DNA of 64,000 nt, taken from positions 105,003-169,002 of the forward strand of contig JBDKRG010000059.1 in assembly GCA_039683515.1 (NCBI GenBank), written 5' to 3'. Positions 4,890-60,920 of this stretch are shown here, one piece after another. Position 1 is the first letter of the stretch. Each line of letters opens with the position of its first letter. A program made the translations under genes and the position numbers. Source of the stretch: Candidatus Sumerlaeia bacterium. Its GTDB lineage: Bacteria; Sumerlaeota; Sumerlaeia; MVZB01. Below the pieces are notes generated by a model. The model saw only the letters and a list, made by a program, of their open reading frames with translations. It did not search any database and was not told the origin of the DNA.

Positions 4890-4974
4890 CAGTTCACAAA
4901 TTTCAATGATCGATCCGATCCATCGGTTCGAGTTGTGTTAAGCCCCAAATCGCATTCCGCATTCGTCTTGCAAC

Positions 4975-5007: not shown

Positions 5008-5894
5008 TAAAGCGCGAGTCCCCAGAGGCCGACGGTGATGCCGGCGCCGAGCATCTCGCCGAAGAGGATCAGCAGCGCGATCGGGATGAACTGGATCGCG
5101 CCCTGGCGCCGGCGATGCTCGCGCACGCTCGCCTGCGCGAGCATCCCGTACATGAACGGCAGGATGAGGCCCAGCATGACCCGCGCCAGCAGGGTGGCGA
5201 TCGTCTCGTTGCGCAGCGAGCCGATCATGGCGCGCATGCCGAGGGGCATGTAGACCACGCCGGTCACGATCGAAAACAGGATGAAGACGGCGCGCAGGGC
5301 CACGCCGATGCACACGAACCGGCCAGCGCGCAGGATGCCCTCGTCCCCCTTCTCCTTCTTCCAACACGCAAGCTCGTTGAGGCCGAGCATCGCGGCGTGC
5401 ATCAGGATCGCGCCGCAAAGCAGCCCGCCGCCGATGGAGAAAAAGATCGCCGGCCGGGGCAGCAGGACGCGCTCGGGCCAGCCGGGATATTTCTGCACGA
5501 AAAACAGGCTCAGCGCCCAGGCGGCCGCCGCGCTCAGGCCGAGCTGAAACAGCAACGTGCCGCCGCGCAGGATGCCGTGCCGGCCGGGATGGCCGCTCAT
5601 GCTGCGCGCCACGACCGCCGACCACGCCAGCCCGCACCCCGCGCCGATGGCGAGGATCAAGGACTTCTCGAACGGCGCGATCGCGCGCCACGCGTGCATC
5701 AGGAGCGACATGGCTGCGACCGTCACGAGCGCGAAGAGGCCGCCGACGACGGCGCCCGGCCGCTGCTCGTCGCGCCTGAGCGCGAAACTGAACAGGGCTC
5801 CGCCGAGCGCGATTTCGAACAGGAAGATCGAGAGGGCGATACGCATGGAACCGGCGACTCGTGGGGTAAAGGGGGGCTGGACAGCGGCGGACAA
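5007..5894 (-). CDS. hypothetical polytopic membrane protein
   Basis: Eight or more hydrophobic helices and no recognisable motif. The start is uncertain (TTG at 5894 or ATG at 5846). Confidence 0.5.
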   Translation of the reverse strand: MSAAVQPPFTPRVAGSMRIALSIFLFEIALGGALFSFALRRDEQRPGAVVGGLFALVTVAAMSLLMHAWRAIAPFEKSLILAIGAGCGLAWSAVVARSMSGHPGRHGILRGGTLLFQLGLSAAAAWALSLFFVQKYPGWPERVLLPRPAIFFSIGGGLLCGAILMHAAMLGLNELACWKKEKGDEGILRAGRFVCIGVALRAVFILFSIVTGVVYMPLGMRAMIGSLRNETIATLLARVMLGLILPFMYGMLAQASVREHRRRQGAIQFIPIALLILFGEMLGAGITVGLWGLAL

Positions 5895-22604: not shown

Positions 22605-22675
22605 TTCGTGCTCGTGCGTCGAGCTCGTGCTCGTGCTCGTGCTCGTAATCGTAATCGTAATCGAAAATCGATCGA
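22605..22675 (+). repeat. hexamer composite repeat (CGTGCT)n(CGTAAT)n, copy 2
   Basis: ttcgtgctcgtgcgtcgagctcgtgctcgtgctcgtgctcgtaatcgtaatcgtaatcgaaaatcgatcg. It begins 28 nt upstream of the smpB start codon, on the opposite strand. Confidence 0.92.
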
Positions 22676-23532: not shown

Positions 23533-23570
23533 ACCCCATGGGTCCCATGGGACCCATGAGACGCATGCGT
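23533..23570 (+). repeat. nonamer-period repeat (GGKNCCCATG-type)
   Basis: aaccccatg ggtcccatg ggacccatg agacgcatg. Confidence 0.85.
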
Positions 23571-27600: not shown

Positions 27601-27667
27601 AATGGCATCACGGCTCGGGCGAAATCGAATCAGTTTGCCTTTGATCGCCTCCCGCGATAGCCTATGG

Positions 27668-27750
27668 GTCTGAGCTGGGGGTGCTGCGCCGAACGGCGCG
27701 GCTGAGAGAGTCCCTTCGAACCTGATCCGGGTAATGCCGGCGCAGGGAAA
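27668..27750 (+). promoter_or_regulatory. TPP (THI-box) riboswitch aptamer
   Basis: gggggtgc...ggCTGAGAgagtcccttcgaACCTGATCcGGgTAATgCCggCGcAGGGAA matches the conserved TPP aptamer cores (CUGAGA; ACCUGAUCUGGAUAAUGCCAGCG). It lies directly upstream of thiC. Confidence 0.88.
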
Positions 27751-27780
27751 GCTTTCCGGCTTTCTTTCCCCCACACTTAA

Positions 27781-29706
<1,926 letters not shown>

Positions 29707-37483: not shown

Positions 37484-37538
37484 AACTCGTGCTCGTGCGT
37501 CGTGCTCGTAATCGTCATCGTAATCGTAATCGAACGCG
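37484..37538 (+). repeat. hexamer composite repeat, copy 4
   Basis: aactcgtgctcgtgcgtcgtgctcgtaatcgtcatcgtaatcgtaatcgaacgcg, 25 nt upstream of the amidohydrolase start (opposite strand). Confidence 0.9.
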
Positions 37539-37576: not shown

Positions 37577-37630
37577 TGGGGTGGATCGATTTTCGATTAC
37601 GATTACGAGCACGAGCACGAGCACGACGCA
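37577..37630 (-). repeat. hexamer composite repeat, copy 5 (inverted relative to copy 4)
   Basis: cgattttcgattacgattacgagcacgagcacgagcacgacgcacgagcacgaa is the reverse complement of the family consensus. Confidence 0.9.
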
Positions 37631-37664
37631 CGAGCACGAAAAAAGGCCCACGCTTTTCGGCGTG
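37628..37664 (-). terminator. rho-independent (bidirectional) terminator after the 37690..40488 gene
   Basis: AAAAAAGGCCCACGC-ttttcg-GCGTGGGCCTTTTT. Confidence 0.85.
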
Positions 37665-43448: not shown

Positions 43449-43492
43449 GGATCCTATGAGTCCCATGAGTCCTATAAGTCCTATGGGACTCA
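43449..43492 (+). repeat. nonamer tandem repeat GAGTCCYAT x ~4.5
   Basis: ggatcctat gagtcccat gagtcctat aagtcctat gggactc. Confidence 0.9.
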
Positions 43493-44932: not shown

Positions 44933-45128
44933 AAGCGCTGAAAGCGCGGGAGATTTCAGCCTGGGGTGGAGCGAAGCGTAGCCCCAGGAATAAGGCGTAA
45001 CATTGACAGGAGCGCTGAAGGCGCGAGAGAAACTTATGTCACGCCTTCAGCGCTCGTTATTTCTTCGTCCGACACCTGGGGCTGCGCTTCGCTCCACCCC
45101 AGGCTTAATTCTCTTGCGCCTTCAGCGC
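44933..45128. repeat. ~200-bp composite nested-palindrome element, copy 1
   Basis: Module order: AAGCGCTGAAAGCGCG / CCTGGGG-N15-CCCCAGG / GAGCGCTGAAGGCGCG / CGCCTTCAGCGCTC / CCTGGGG-N15-CCCCAGG / GCGCCTTCAGCGC. The outer, middle and inner pairs are mutually complementary. Confidence 0.9.
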
Positions 45129-46398: not shown

Positions 46399-46431
46399 GG
46401 GCCTTGGGTCCCTTGGGTCCCTTGGGTCCTT
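46399..46431 (+). repeat. nonamer tandem repeat TTGGGTCCC x3
   Basis: gggccttgggtcccttgggtcccttgggtcc, ending 5 nt from the FAH gene stop. Confidence 0.9.
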
Positions 46432-46435
46432 TTTC

Positions 46436-56537: not shown

Positions 56538-56736
56538 AAGCGCTGAAAGCGCGAAAGAATACAGCCTGGGGCGCAGCGAAGCGCAGCCCCAGGTAAGCGG
56601 CGCCATATCATTGGAGCGCTGAAGGCGCGGAAGAAGCCGATTTCTCTCGCTCCTTCAGCGCTCCGGTTTGGTGCGGTTCGTGACCTGGGGCTGCGCTGCG
56701 CTTCGCCCAGGCTATGATCTCTTGCGCCTTCAGCGC
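56538..56736. repeat. ~200-bp composite nested-palindrome element, copy 2
   Basis: Same module order and spacing as 44933-45128: AAGCGCTGAAAGCGCG ... CCTGGGG-N15-CCCCAGG ... GGAGCGCTGAAGGCGCGG ... GCTCCTTCAGCGCTCC ... CCTGGGG-N15-CCCAGG ... GCGCCTTCAGCGC. Confidence 0.9.
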
Positions 56737-57430: not shown

Positions 57431-58792
57431 TTAGAATCCGACCCGGCTCATGCCGTGCACGTAGGCGATGACGGCCGAGGCGACCGCCGAGGCGACCCGG
57501 CCGGCGTCCTCGGGATCGGGCGTCTCCTGCCTGGCGCCCATCGGGACGACGACGGCCGCCGACGGGGCGTCGACGCGCCGCAGCAGATACGACGGGGCCA
57601 GCTCGTAGGCGATCGTCTGGTCGGGGAACTGTCGGCCGAGCTCGGTCCTCAGCAGCGAACCGAGCGCCAGCGACTGGAATTCGTGCTGGGCGAAACGCTG
57701 GGCCACGGGCTCGCCCGATTGCCGCTCGGGCCACAGCGCGCTATTGACCACCCAGATCGCGTAGCTCTTCGGGTCGTCCGCTTTCTGCGATGCCGGCCTC
57801 GTCGCCATGACGTCGATCACGAGCTGGGGCGACTGGCCGTAGACCTGCGTGACCAGGGAGTCCTGCGCGCGCTGGCCGTTGGGGGCGATCAGCACCGAAC
57901 TTTCGAGCTGGATGCGCTCCTCGAGCTCCTGGCCGATCTTCTGCGCGATCGGCTCGAGCGCCCGGTCGCACACGATCGTGATGCGGCTGGGCGGCTGGCG
58001 GTGCGCCAGGTCCGAGAGCTGCGCCCAGGAAAGCCCGACCGTGCCGGCCAATGCTTGCGGCGGCTGCAGGACGGCTTCGTCGCCATTGGACGGGCTCTTC
58101 TTCTGCCTCGGCTCGGGGCGGCTGGGAACGATCACCGTGCGGCGCGCCTCGTCCGGCGGCGCGGGGGCGACGGTCGGCTCGGGCGTCGGCTCGGCAATGG
58201 CGGGGGCGGCGGTCGGGGCGGCGGTCGGCGTCGGCGAAGGGGTCGGCGTCGGCCGGTTCAGGACGCCGGTCGGGATGTCCGGCAGCGCCGGGACGGCCGG
58301 CGCCGGCGTGGGCGTGGGCGTCGCCGCGACGGGCGCCGGGGCGGCCGGGACGGAAGCCGGCGCCTTCTGGCCCTCGCCGGAGACTTCGATGTTGAGCGCC
58401 GTCAGGACCTTGCGGACGGTCGCCTCGGGGACGAGCACGCGCCCCTCGCGCAGCGTGAGCTGCCGGTCGACGCCGCTCATCCTGCCGTCGATCACGATCG
58501 CCGGCTGGCGGCCGAGGATGTCGAACTGCTTGCCGCCGGCGTTGATCCGCACGCTCTGGCTGCGCGAATCGTAGCCGCCCCGGGCCTGCGGGTCGAAGTG
58601 CTGCACGACGCGCAGGAAGTCCTGCATGAGCAGGTAATGCTCCCCTGCCTCGCTGATCAGGGTCATGGTGACCTCGCCCGACGGGGTCGGGGCGGCGGTT
58701 TGCGCGGCGGCGAACCGGGCCGCCAGGATCACGGCGGCGAGCAGCATCAGGATGCGGGTCAAGGCGGTCGGCAGGTTCATGGAGGGGGTCAT
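57431..58792 (-). CDS. secreted protein: stalk-like beta domain, P/A/T-rich linker, degenerate amidase_3-like C-terminal domain
   Basis: Signal peptide 'LTRILMLLAAVILAARFAAA'. 'IDGRMSGVDRQLTLREGRVLVPEATVRKVLTAL' is like the copper-amine-oxidase-N/stalk fold. The linker is 'PAPVAATPTPTPAPAVP...PTPSPTPTAAPTAAP'. The C-terminal 'LLRRVDAPSAAVVVPMG' is like the amidase_3 end, but the GHGG and His motifs are absent. Confidence 0.35.
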   Translation of the reverse strand: MTPSMNLPTALTRILMLLAAVILAARFAAAQTAAPTPSGEVTMTLISEAGEHYLLMQDFLRVVQHFDPQARGGYDSRSQSVRINAGGKQFDILGRQPAIVIDGRMSGVDRQLTLREGRVLVPEATVRKVLTALNIEVSGEGQKAPASVPAAPAPVAATPTPTPAPAVPALPDIPTGVLNRPTPTPSPTPTAAPTAAPAIAEPTPEPTVAPAPPDEARRTVIVPSRPEPRQKKSPSNGDEAVLQPPQALAGTVGLSWAQLSDLAHRQPPSRITIVCDRALEPIAQKIGQELEERIQLESSVLIAPNGQRAQDSLVTQVYGQSPQLVIDVMATRPASQKADDPKSYAIWVVNSALWPERQSGEPVAQRFAQHEFQSLALGSLLRTELGRQFPDQTIAYELAPSYLLRRVDAPSAAVVVPMGARQETPDPEDAGRVASAVASAVIAYVHGMSRVGF

Positions 58793-58835
58793 TTTCGGCT
58801 CTGGGAATCGGTCTCAAGCGTGTGAAAAAAACAGC

Positions 58836-58863
58836 TTGACATTCGTGTCATATATGCTATAAG
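58836..58863 (+). promoter_or_regulatory. near-consensus sigma70-type promoter with no downstream ORF
   Basis: TTGACA (58836-41), a 16-nt spacer, then TATAAG (58858-63). Confidence 0.5.
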
Positions 58864-59200
58864 TCCACACAATGTTTTCACAACCATACAACATCTTGAC
58901 ATGGGAGGTCAAGACGAGGTTGGAAATTCAGTAAGTGTTGTTCCTTAAAACGACCGTCAGCGGATTCTCCAGTTGTTCCAGCTCAAGTTCCCGCTCAACC
59001 TGGTCGGGTCGGTCGATTTAAGGGGCAAGGGGACGACCTGGTGGCGGGTCGAGGGTTCCTGCCCATCAACAACCCATCCACACTCAGGTCCCTTCCTGCG
59101 ACAAGCCTGATTTCGGCACGCCGCCCGCCGTTTTCCCCCGACCGGGCACGCGTGTCTGGCCCTGGTTCGTCACAGGTCGTCCCCATCACCTCCCAATCTT
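58864..59200 (+). ncRNA. candidate structured non-coding RNA (family unknown)
   Basis: No plausible ORF on either strand. Hairpin CTTGAC-atgggag-GTCAAG (58895-58913). An exact 12-bp long-range pairing GGGGACGACCTG (59029-40) / CAGGTCGTCCCC (59173-84) encloses GC-rich complementary segments. The strand is assigned only from the promoter. Confidence 0.35.
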
Positions 59201-59250
59201 AAATCCCCAGCATTGAGCTTCCAATCGGAAAAAAACAAAATTGATGGAAT

Positions 59251-59286
59251 GGATCCTTTGGGTCCCATGAGTCCTATGGGTCCTAG
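59251..59286 (+). repeat. nonamer tandem repeat (GGATCCTTT GGGTCCCAT GAGTCCTAT GGGTCCTAG)
   Basis: Same family as 43449-43492 and 23533-23570. Confidence 0.9.
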
Positions 59287-59307
59287 AGCGCTTGACGAAA
59301 GTTATCG

Positions 59308-59350
59308 GTTCGTGCTCGTGCTCGTGCTCGTGCTCGTAATCGTAATCGAA
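59308..59350 (+). repeat. hexamer composite repeat, copy 6
   Basis: ttcgtgctcgtgctcgtgctcgtgctcgtaatcgtaatcgaat. Confidence 0.92.
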
Positions 59351-59361
59351 TCAGCACCAGG

Positions 59362-59432
59362 AAATTCGGTGAAAATTCGGTGACAGCGACCGCATTTGTC
59401 TCTATTGAAAATCAATGCGGCCGCTGTCACCG
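59362..59432 (+). other. 11-nt tandem duplication feeding into a 19-bp hairpin
   Basis: AAATTCGGTGA x2. Then CGGTGACAGCGACCGCATT - 17-nt loop - AATGCGGCCGCTGTCACCG, with one mismatch. Confidence 0.85.
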
Positions 59433-59450
59433 GATGAACCGGATCGCTGT

Positions 59451-59495
59451 GGGGCCGGCGCCCCGCCGGCCATTCACGCATCTTTTTTGTCACCC
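59451..59495 (+). terminator. terminator-like hairpin
   Basis: GGCCGGCG-ccc-CGCCGGCC followed 12 nt later by TTTTTT. The spacing is not ideal. Confidence 0.4.
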
Positions 59496-59506
59496 ACATA
59501 GCCAAA

Positions 59507-59535
59507 GGCCGGCGTTTGTGCGCCGGCCTTTTTGA
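59507..59535. terminator. rho-independent terminator (bidirectional; also ends the GspF-like gene)
   Basis: GGCCGGCG-tttgtg-CGCCGGCC followed by TTTTTGATTTTT. Confidence 0.8.
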
Positions 59536-59558
59536 TTTTTGGACTTATCTCGTCGTTT

Positions 59559-60794
59559 TTACTTCACGCCGACCACCTGCGCCATGTTGAAGTAGGGCAG
59601 CAGGACGGCCGTCGCGATGAAAATCACCACGCCGCCGAGCATGATGATCAGGACCGGCTCGATGATGCTGGCCATGCCGGCCAGCGTCGTGCTGACTTCG
59701 GTGTCGTAGGTATCGGCGATCTTGTTGAGCATCGTGTCGAGCGTGCCGGTTTCCTCCCCGACCGCGATCATGTCGACGACCATCGACGGGAAGATCCGCG
59801 CCTGCGCGAGCGGTTCGCTCATCCGGCCGCCGCGCTCGACCTCGTCGCGCACGTCGTACCAGGCGTCGGCCACAAGCAGGTTCTCGCTCGAGTCGCCGGT
59901 GATCCGGATCGCGTCGGTCAGCGGGATGCCGGCCGAAACCAGGCCGCCCAGCGTCCGGCAGGAGCGGGCCACGGCGATCTTGCGGTTAATGCCGGACACG
60001 ATCGGGATCCGCAGCCCCAGCCACGAATACACGCGCCGCCCTGACGGGACCCGGCCCCACAGGCTCAGGCCGATGACGCCGGCCACGAGCGCGACAATGA
60101 TCACGGGCCACGCGGCCGCGAAGAAATCCGACATCCCGATGATGACCGTCGTGGGCCGCGGCAGGTTGACGTCGTTCTGCTTGTAGACCTCGGCGAAGGT
60201 CGGGATCGCCTTGACCATGATGACCATCACGACCATGATCGCCACGCACAGCGCCACGATCGGGTACATCGCCGCGGACCACGCCTGCCGGCGGATGCGC
60301 GCCTTGGATTCCATGATGTCGGCCAGGCGCCGGAGCGATTCCTCCAGGATGCCGCCGACCTCGCCGATGCGGACGATCGAGACGACGAGCGTCGAGAACG
60401 TGCGCTCGTGGCGGGCAAGCGCCTGGTGGATCGGCTCGCCTTCCTCGACACCCTTGGCGGCGTCGGCGATGGCGTTGCGCAGGCGGCCGTTGCTCGTGCG
60501 CTTGGAGAGCATCTGGAGCGACTTGAGGACCGGGATGCCGACCTGGATCAGCGTCGAGAACTGGCGGCAGAACACCGCCTTCTCCAGGAACGTCGGTCCG
60601 AACACCGAGATCGGCTTGGCCAGCGTGCTGACCATGGCGTCGGTCGTGCCGCCGGCTGCCGGACCCGTCTCGAGCGCTTCGCCTTCGCGCGCCAGCGGCG
60701 CGTCCTTCTCGTGGGGCAGGCCGGCCTTGGCAAGGGCCTCCTGCAGAGATGAACGCCCGGAACTGGCCTTGTTGGTGTCTTTACGAGGTTGCAT
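59559..60794 (-). CDS. type II secretion / type IV pilus platform protein (GspF/PilC family)
   Basis: Two T2SSF repeats: 'FCRQFSTLIQVGIPVLKSLQML...GEPIHQAL' and 'SCRTLGGLVSAGIPLTDAIRI...GGRMSEPL'. Three TM segments. Confidence 0.9.
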   Translation of the reverse strand: MQPRKDTNKASSGRSSLQEALAKAGLPHEKDAPLAREGEALETGPAAGGTTDAMVSTLAKPISVFGPTFLEKAVFCRQFSTLIQVGIPVLKSLQMLSKRTSNGRLRNAIADAAKGVEEGEPIHQALARHERTFSTLVVSIVRIGEVGGILEESLRRLADIMESKARIRRQAWSAAMYPIVALCVAIMVVMVIMVKAIPTFAEVYKQNDVNLPRPTTVIIGMSDFFAAAWPVIIVALVAGVIGLSLWGRVPSGRRVYSWLGLRIPIVSGINRKIAVARSCRTLGGLVSAGIPLTDAIRITGDSSENLLVADAWYDVRDEVERGGRMSEPLAQARIFPSMVVDMIAVGEETGTLDTMLNKIADTYDTEVSTTLAGMASIIEPVLIIMLGGVVIFIATAVLLPYFNMAQVVGVK

Positions 60795-60920
60795 CGCCTG
60801 TTTCCTCCGCTTGGCTGTTTGCCTTTGTGTTCAATCCTTATCCAGTTTAAACGATCCCGCGGTTGAAATTCGAATTTCGCGACCGGTTCGGATCCCGAAA
60901 TGCGAACGTTGTGCTTCTCC

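Follow-up and report, generated by a model that had tools for sequence, protein, structure and literature searches.

The window analysed here is a 64,000-nucleotide (nt) stretch of bacterial contig JBDKRG010000059.1. At 58793-59558, it contains an intergenic region between a gene for a secreted amidase-like protein of 453 amino acids (aa) and a gene for GspF, the platform protein of type II secretion systems and type IV pili (T2SS/T4P). An earlier note, made from the sequence alone, had proposed this whole region as a candidate novel noncoding RNA (ncRNA). We found that the region is not a single RNA of ~750 nt; its left half is an RNA gene, and its right half is a spacer of repeats and terminators. 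The RNA family is genuine and previously uncatalogued, and it is smaller than proposed. Our preferred reading, held with moderate confidence, is that 58836-59209 forms an independent gene for a structured ncRNA that acts in trans rather than as a leader.

Transcript, promoter and strand of the RNA gene

The RNA gene comprises the following features.

58836..58863, + strand: sigma-70-type promoter (TTGACA at 58836-58841, 16-nt spacer, TATAAG at 58858-58863)
58870..58888, + strand: predicted 5' leader of the primary transcript, not in the mature RNA, its start placed from the promoter position
58889..59209, + strand: mature ncRNA of 321 nt, defined by a metatranscriptome contig with adaptors at both ends
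59185..59209, + strand: 3' tail of the mature RNA, C-rich and lacking a terminator hairpin; adaptor joined at 59209

Two wastewater metatranscriptomes of a single study (runs X2 and X5) are among the public sequencing runs in which this sequence occurs. A single X2 contig spans exactly 58889-59209 (321 nt) at a depth of 65.4, and the coverage in this run is zero to the left of 58889 and over 59216-59270. Adaptor sequence is attached at both contig ends, with GAGATGTGTATAAGAGACAG plus T before 58889 and A plus CTGTCTCTTATACACATCT after 59209. As such junctions survive assembly only if many fragments end alike, the two ends probably represent natural RNA ends. The depth is the highest among the listed non-repeat contigs in 44-64 kb (the others range from 16 to 55), and the amidase-like gene is almost silent (depth 0-2), its coding sequence having no coverage in X2. 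Transcription, which the earlier note had left to be looked for, is therefore evident as a discrete transcript. The note was right in proposing an uncatalogued plus-strand RNA behind a promoter, but its extent is 321 nt (58889-59209) and not ~700 nt.

The base before AGATGTG separates the two Illumina adaptors, G marking the i7 side and C the i5 side. Two minus-strand genes in the same libraries, GspF and metH, served to calibrate the adaptor type. The i5 type was found at the low end of both genes (59690 in GspF and 50124 in metH) and the i7 type at the high end of GspF (60795). The RNA contig carries the i7-type adaptor at its low-coordinate end (58889), opposite to these minus-strand genes, which places the RNA on the plus strand. 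The orientation of promoters and terminators points to the same strand, and the promoters point in this direction in nearly all full-length homologues (none is recognisable in L015). Folding energy and G-U counts were also tried as strand indicators and were set aside as uninformative or biased. The i7-type end of the GspF contig at 60795 lies one base before the ATG of that gene (60794), suggesting that the GspF mRNA is leaderless or processed.

The promoter given in the earlier note, TTGACA-N16-TATAAG at 58836-58863, is present, and as the promoter of the RNA gene it is conserved in most full-length homologues. A TG at 58855-58856 precedes the -10 element (TTGACA-N16-TGcTATAAG), and an A-rich stretch lies upstream of the -35 element (58824-58833), as is often the case in the homologues. 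TTGACA followed by a 16-17 nt spacer and a TAnnAn -10 element was found in L012, L014, L016, L020, L021, L022, L023, L025 and L026 and in the fragment L024; the spacer sequences are unrelated among homologues. The -35 element of L017 is TTGACT, and L015 is without a clear promoter. The promoter of L022 was scored 11/12 by the scan tool. The consensus scan passed over the TATAAG site of the window only because it demands T at the last -10 position.

The leader sequence is conserved in all homologues, with UUnCACAGnnAUA directly before the mature 5' end. The conserved junction reads UUnCACAGnnAUA|CAAGAUAUUGA, where the bar marks the mature 5' end in the window, and its distance from the -10 element varies from 22 to 35 nt across homologues. 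This distance is variable and too long for a start site, so the 5' end is probably made by processing. Transcription would start near 58870 from the conserved sigma-70-type promoter, and the transcript would then be cut within the conserved motif AUA|CAAGAU and trimmed at its 3' end. The 3' end in the window lies 25 nt past the last stem, and the sequence AUCUUAAAUCyCCC in the tail is common to the window and L012.

The ORF map showed no ORF >67 aa within the region on either strand, in agreement with the earlier statement that no credible ORF exists, and no ORF, small ones included, is conserved among the homologues. The element has the attributes of an independent ncRNA gene: a promoter that belongs to it, a discrete transcript whose ends are defined, and the lack of any conserved ORF.

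Conservation and secondary structure of the RNA

The amidase-like protein has only ~20 relatives among 5.8 billion proteins. Upstream of the amidase-like gene, each fetched contig has 445-930 nt without a credible gene, and the reverse complement of these stretches aligns with 58820-59215 of the window. The nhmmer E-values were 4e-20 to 4e-3 for homologues outside the seed alignment. A pattern search with the two best-conserved motifs returned two further metagenome copies, L017 and L018, both beside an amidase-like gene. Another pattern match, L019, had no amidase-like gene, no ATP-binding cassette (ABC) ATPase gene and no nhmmer or covariance model match, and it was rejected as a chance match. 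In total, 12 distinct full-length sequences (the window and 11 other loci) and a promoter-only fragment (L024) were available. Sequence identity between the window RNA and its three nearest homologues is 71%, 66% and 51%; for the neighbouring amidase-like protein, it is 34-61% across the set. The comparison with relatives that the earlier note had suggested showed conservation of both sequence and structure. The elements of the RNA are as follows.

58887..58899, + strand: motif M1, TACAAsATmTTGA, nearly invariant in two alignments
58894..58914, + strand: hairpin P1, UCUUGAC-N7-GUCAAGA, from sequence and fold
58938..59028, + strand: domain A, an inverted repeat whose stem A1 pairs 58938-58956 with 59010-59028
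58995..59007, + strand: motif M2, UCAACCUGGUCGG, near-invariant, directly 5' of the 3' strand of stem A1
59029..59184, + strand: domain B, from an inverted repeat and folds; stem B1 pairs 59029-59040 with 59173-59184 and continues inward

Homologues folded singly gave a broadly similar plan, consisting of a short 5' single strand with M1, the variable hairpin P1, domain A, a linker and domain B. The mature 5' end falls within M1 (UA|CAAC). P1 contains the CTTGAC-N7-GTCAAG hairpin described in the earlier note (58895-58900/58908-58913). Its position holds a hairpin in the homologues too, with other sequence (AUAUGGU/GCCAUGU in L020); when the four closest sequences were aligned, one of the seven P1 pairs had changed on both sides and four were broken in L020. 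Domain A encloses small hairpins and M2, and its closing stem recurs with different sequence in separate minimum free energy folds of most homologues. Within M2, CCTGGTC is exact in 11 of the 12 homologues and AACCTGGTCGG in 9. No conserved pairing partner of M2 was found in the separate homologue folds or by complementarity search, and a search for local sequences complementary to the invariant motifs returned only the motifs themselves. The A-rich linker GCAAAGAAAGG connects domain A to domain B. Within the latter lie a hairpin whose loop is C/U-rich, the single-stranded segment CCUGCGACAAGCC (59095-59107) and hairpin B3 (59115-59156, C-rich loop at 59130-59140), and CCUnCGACuuGCC within this domain is single-stranded in the common fold plan. 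Unpaired positions are 35% C and 14% G. The near-invariant single-stranded motifs (CAAGAUAUUGA and UCAACCUGGUCGG) and the C/U-rich loops are probably the contact surfaces for a protein or other RNAs.

Folding was better than in dinucleotide shuffles, with z = -7.6 for 58865-59545 and z = -3.8 for 58889-59215. When the four closest sequences were aligned by MAFFT on sequence only, 91.5% of the cells were paired, and both sides had changed in 14 of the 59 pairs. Shuffles gave 4.5±1.8 such pairs (0/500 reached 14), and slid controls gave 0-4. Four of the pairs changed on both sides belong to helix B1. Sequence aligners were unusable on the distant homologues; therefore, we chose an alignment-free swap test on the 12 sequences, with windows at fixed offsets from M2. 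For B1, pairing with the own partner gave -41.9 kcal/mol versus -31.1±1.4 kcal/mol with permuted partners, and for A1, -28.8 versus -23.0±1.1 kcal/mol; in both cases, 0/50,000 permutations reached the own value. The result was unchanged after dropping close relatives. The strands of B1 illustrate this pattern (GGGGACGACCUGG/CAGGUCGUCCCC in the window, GGGCGACCC/GGGUCGCCC in L016 and GAGACCCGAUCCGGGGAAUC/GAUUCCCCGGAUCGCGUCUC in L015). Stems A1 and B1 thus differ in sequence yet stay complementary, that is, they are co-varying and the structure is conserved. The exact 12-bp pairing of 59029-59040 with 59173-59184 that the earlier note had pointed out is accordingly a real co-varying stem.

A covariance model of domain B (R1), built from the four close sequences, recovered L017 and L015. 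Its reverse-strand matches interleave with the true ones, and the model is too narrow for a family alignment. MAFFT with RNAalifold gave no consensus on the distant group because these sequences are too diverged.

These data bear on the trivial explanation that the region has no function of its own and is intergenic DNA that folds by chance and is padded with repeats. The right half is indeed variable repeat DNA, and GC-rich sequence folds readily. However, relatives with no more than 34-61% identity in the neighbouring protein still share the left half, whose stems co-vary, whose promoter and terminators are conserved, and which yields a discrete, abundant transcript. For the region as a whole, we find this explanation scarcely credible; it is already contradicted for 58836-59209, and it stands for 59210-59503.

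Known RNA families, neighbouring genes and possible function

The earlier note could not match the region by eye to known RNA families, and the Rfam search agreed. None of the 4227 models of Rfam 15 matched at gathering score in 58793-59558, and at E<=10 only terminator-hairpin matches and one match with E=9.7 appeared in the region. In eight homologue loci, nothing was found at E<=1 besides two tRNAs elsewhere. In the window, ARAGORN detected neither a tRNA nor a tmRNA of standard or permuted type. A highly divergent member of a housekeeping family (6S/Ms1-like RNA, RNase P RNA, tmRNA or signal recognition particle (SRP) RNA) missed by the models could account for a single-copy, lineage-wide RNA with a strong consensus promoter and processing at both ends, and the size is typical of RNase P RNA, tmRNA or Ms1. 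Against this stand the lack of Rfam 15 and ARAGORN matches and the absence of 5'-3' terminal pairing, T-arm, tag ORF and GGAAAGUCC-type P4 sequence, together with a fold of two side-by-side domains instead of a rod with a central bubble. In particular, the 5' and 3' ends, which are paired in tmRNA, pair in no fold. RNase P had no Rfam match at E<=10, and the P4 regions (GGAAAGUCC... and ...ACAGAA...) were not seen on reading 58889-59209. SRP RNA had no Rfam match in the window or the eight homologue loci; the window sequence ACCUGGUCGGGUCGG resembles the 4.5S RNA sequence, which we take to be ACCAGGUCAGGUCCGG, but the homologues do not conserve what follows GGUCGG. For 6S RNA, no Rfam match was obtained, and the two adjacent domains leave the termini free. 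We consider a hidden housekeeping RNA very improbable.

The genes on both sides of the region are as follows.

57431-58792, - strand: gene for the secreted 453-aa amidase-like protein, left neighbour, ATG at 58792
59559-60794, - strand: gene for the T2SS/T4P platform protein GspF, right neighbour

The 453-aa protein had no Pfam match above threshold; Cu_amine_oxidN1 matched weakly, and distant relatives carry Amidase_3. The RNA element is divergent (back-to-back) from the amidase-like gene at every locus (15/15, including the window). Synteny via GspF was also considered and rejected. Its sole close relative (L002, 81% identity) has other downstream genes and no RNA, indicating that the RNA travels with the amidase-like gene and not with GspF. 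In a 97%-identical strain (run X3), the amidase-like gene has a 9-nt in-frame deletion at 58162 in a proline/alanine-rich linker. Two matches to the Rfam motif Acido-Lenti-1 were found on the minus strand, at 56539-56593 (46.9 bits) and 44934-44988 (38.1 bits); the first is directly downstream of an AMMECR1 gene, which comes after the amidase-like gene.

This fixed position raises the possibility that the RNA acts on the divergent amidase-like gene, either through promoter interference or because the structure is the minus-strand 5' leader of that gene. The element is immediately upstream of the gene at all 15 loci, only 43 nt separate the ATG of the gene (58792) from the -35 element of the RNA, the RNA gene has a minus-strand promoter-like site (TTGACC at 58912 ... 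TATGGT at 58883) in its 5' part, and the folding energy is equal on both strands. However, the adaptor orientation indicates a plus-strand RNA, coverage stops at 58889 beside an almost silent gene (depth 0-2), the conserved promoters and terminators are on the plus strand, and distant homologues do not share the minus-strand promoter-like site. Promoter interplay was ranked lower because it needs no co-varying structure of 300 nt. Overall, an action on the amidase-like gene appears improbable.

Several observations weigh against an independent, trans-acting RNA. Among the 14 loci with sequence on the downstream side, 11 have an ABC ATPase gene downstream on the same strand within ~35-110 nt, a leader-like layout. 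The abundance of the RNA is mRNA-like, without the large excess typical of housekeeping RNAs. The transcript is known from contigs assembled in a single study (X2 and in part X5) and not from raw stranded reads; its assignment to a strand depends on one discriminating adaptor base and three calibration ends, and folding energy does not discriminate between the strands. The 5' end is 26 nt past the -10 element, so that a processing step has to be assumed. In addition, R1 does not recover L016, L021, L022 or L023, even when its filters are switched off, and for the most distant homologues the similarity of the inner architecture of domain B is thus shown by separate folds only.

The downstream ABC_tran genes encode ATPases that are LolD/FtsE-like by their best NCBIfam matches, which are below the cut-off. 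The layout suggests that the RNA could be a cis-acting 5' leader of this gene, riboswitch-like or a protein-controlled attenuator, in which the terminator is the switch; the lineage of the window would then have lost the ABC gene by rearrangement and kept an orphan leader. Besides the gene order in 11 of the 14 loci, six homologues have a strong terminator ~35-85 nt before the ABC start, and the near-invariant junction nucleotides with variable stems form an aptamer-like pattern. The terminators of these six homologues are plus-strand intrinsic terminators (hairpins of -22 to -33 kcal/mol plus a T-run) located 230-254 nt past M2 and ~15-45 nt beyond stem B1. A simple terminator scan missed those with long loops, which were re-checked by folding; the scan tool confirmed the terminators in L017 and L026. 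No such terminator was found in 5 of the 12 sequences (the window, its three closest relatives and L015), contrary to what a terminator switch would require. The terminators that exist are self-contained hairpins clear of the closing stem B1, so no alternative pairing, and no expression platform competing with the sensor, is evident.

The ABC genes themselves lack a Shine-Dalgarno sequence and have a TAnnAT-like -10 box that precedes the ATG by 5-11 nt. The regions with these boxes are as follows.

L012: 3413-3440
L016: 3411-3440
L017: 3286-3322
L021: 938-965
L022: 824-850
L025: 761-790
L026: 774-800

L017 even has a full promoter (TTGCTA-17-TACAAT) between the terminator and the ABC ATG. Judged from sequence, the ABC ATPase mRNAs are probably leaderless. 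Moreover, the RNA is kept, structurally intact, where the ABC gene is missing (the window, L020 and L023), and the expressed RNA of the window has defined ends with no sign of read-through. Taken together, we regard a leader of the ABC ATPase gene as unlikely. As a best guess, the RNA stands alone and acts in trans, probably as a regulator or bound to protein in a particle. It is always back-to-back with the gene for the secreted amidase-like protein and usually faces a LolD/FtsE-like ABC ATPase gene, an arrangement that suggests a role linked to the cell envelope.

The RNA can be compared with several known systems. OLE, raiA, ROOL and GOLLD are likewise lineage-restricted RNAs of medium to large size with elaborate conserved secondary structure and invariant unpaired nucleotides, and OLE-type RNAs share a fixed neighbourhood with envelope- or membrane-related genes. 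OLE adjoins its partner gene oapA and forms a membrane-associated particle. However, none of these Rfam families matches at any threshold used, and the window RNA is about half the size of OLE and belongs to a different, uncultured lineage, probably Candidatus Sumerlaeota. Similar to 6S RNA and mycobacterial Ms1, the RNA is stable, a few hundred nt long, driven by its own strong promoter and matured at both ends, but it has no rod fold, central bubble, end pairing or Rfam match, and its abundance is at mRNA level in one data set. With riboswitch or attenuator leaders, it shares the position upstream of an ABC ATPase gene in the same orientation in most relatives, the terminator before that gene in six of them, and conserved junctions with variable stems. 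It differs from them in that it persists and is expressed without the ABC gene, has discrete ends and keeps the terminator clear of the fold, and in that the ABC gene seems to be transcribed from a promoter of its own, with a leaderless start. Several unpaired C/U-rich stretches in loops and junctions recall Staphylococcus RNAIII and RsaE/RoxS, whose C-rich loops pair with G-rich ribosome-binding sites. In contrast to these RNAs, a local search gave no target, Shine-Dalgarno sequences are missing from the neighbouring genes, conservation is strongest in motifs other than the C-rich loops, and the window RNA is far more structured than base-pairing small RNAs.

RpoC on the L023 contig has named relatives in Candidatus Sumerlaeota (formerly BRC1), and the RNA is probably conserved in uncultured bacteria of this candidate phylum. 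The synteny that the window shares with these contigs suggests the same affiliation for the window, for which ThiC was uninformative. A literature search returned no description of ncRNAs in Candidatus Sumerlaeota, and one by accession gave nothing. To our knowledge, few bacterial RNA families of several hundred nt have elaborate conserved folds, and the large structured bacterial RNAs solved so far, as far as we know, proved to be ribozymes, riboswitches or cores of RNA-protein machines. On a speculative and decidedly unlikely reading, the present RNA would be the first of a new class, a catalytic RNA or RNA-protein core for envelope maintenance confined to an uncultured lineage, probably Sumerlaeota; such an RNA might self-cleave its leader at the AUA|CAAGAU junction. 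As a structured RNA gene with exact ends, 12 diverse sequences and two stems backed by co-variation, it offers a start for study, and the fixed gene neighbourhood hints at where partners may be sought.

The variable repeat spacer

The right half of the region, 59210-59558, is a strain-variable spacer of dispersed tandem repeats and terminators outside the conserved RNA, and half of what had been flagged as a structured region proves to be short tandem-repeat arrays instead. The 97%-identical strain of run X3 keeps 58873-59254 and is without 59255-59373 and 59433-59503. The spacer contains the following features.

~59249..59286, + strand: nonamer array, GGGTCCTAT-like, ~4 copies by TRF, absent in strain X3
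~59310..59352, + strand: hexamer array (TCGTGC)4(TCGTAA)2TCGA, a dispersed repeat and not part of the RNA, absent in strain X3
59362..59435, + strand: 11-nt tandem duplication (59362-59383) overlapping an inverted repeat, unique in the window
59453-59471, + strand: GC hairpin GGCCGGCG-CCC-CGCCGGCC, with a T-run at 59483-59488, ~12 nt later
59504-59531 (feature to 59541), no strand assigned, T-run on the + strand: intrinsic terminator hairpin of 12 pairs, 8 of them G-C

The nonamer array, hexamer element and 11-nt duplication listed in the earlier note are all present in the sequence, as is its 19-bp hairpin, in the form of an inverted repeat with 22-nt arms (59375-59396/59414-59435, 91% complementary). 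As parts of the RNA, these elements and the terminators do not hold up, since strain X3 and the dispersed nature of the repeats place them outside the conserved RNA. The duplication with its inverted repeat is kept in strain X3 with different flanks. Regarding the two terminator-like hairpins that the note had reported, one is a canonical terminator (59504-59531), the sole one of the spacer, located 18 nt beyond the stop codon of the convergent GspF gene (59559). The other (59451-59495) is only a GC hairpin with a distant T-run, on which the terminator scan made no call. With its flanks (59444-59496), this hairpin has a metagenome depth of ~1,850 versus 37 (~50-fold), and strain X3 does not have it. 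We class it as a repeated element and at best a weak terminator.

The GGGTCCTAT-like nonamer arrays are a dispersed intergenic repeat family and not part of the RNA. The other arrays found are as follows.

Window: 23540-23557, 43449-43484 and 46406-46432
L002: 6091-6135
L012: 372-407 and 3486-3533
L014: 3432-3449

The hexamer array reached a metagenome depth of 13,909 versus 37 in its flank (~375x), and short tandem-repeat arrays of this kind are present in hundreds of copies per genome. The family, (TCGTGC)n(TCGTAA)n followed by TCGA, has six arrays in the window (~1 per 10 kb), always intergenic and with the same internal polarity. Its arrays are located as follows.

Window: 2827-2888, 22606-22660, 27794-27829, 37487-37529 (+), 37597-37639 (-) and 59310-59350
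L012: 895-924, 5377-5400 and 6224-6259
L021, a distant relative: 2950-2979, 5473-5490 and 5658-5675

Many other spacers of the window contain short tandem arrays with units of 7-15 nt (e.g., at 4974, 17439, 21991, 27565, 35085, 35857 and 35936). A thiamine pyrophosphate (TPP) riboswitch (Rfam, 69 bits) was found before thiC at 27667-27862 of the window. The hexamer array at 27794-27829 lies in sense orientation between this TPP aptamer and the thiC ATG (27862), indicating that such an array is tolerated in a regulated 5' untranslated region.

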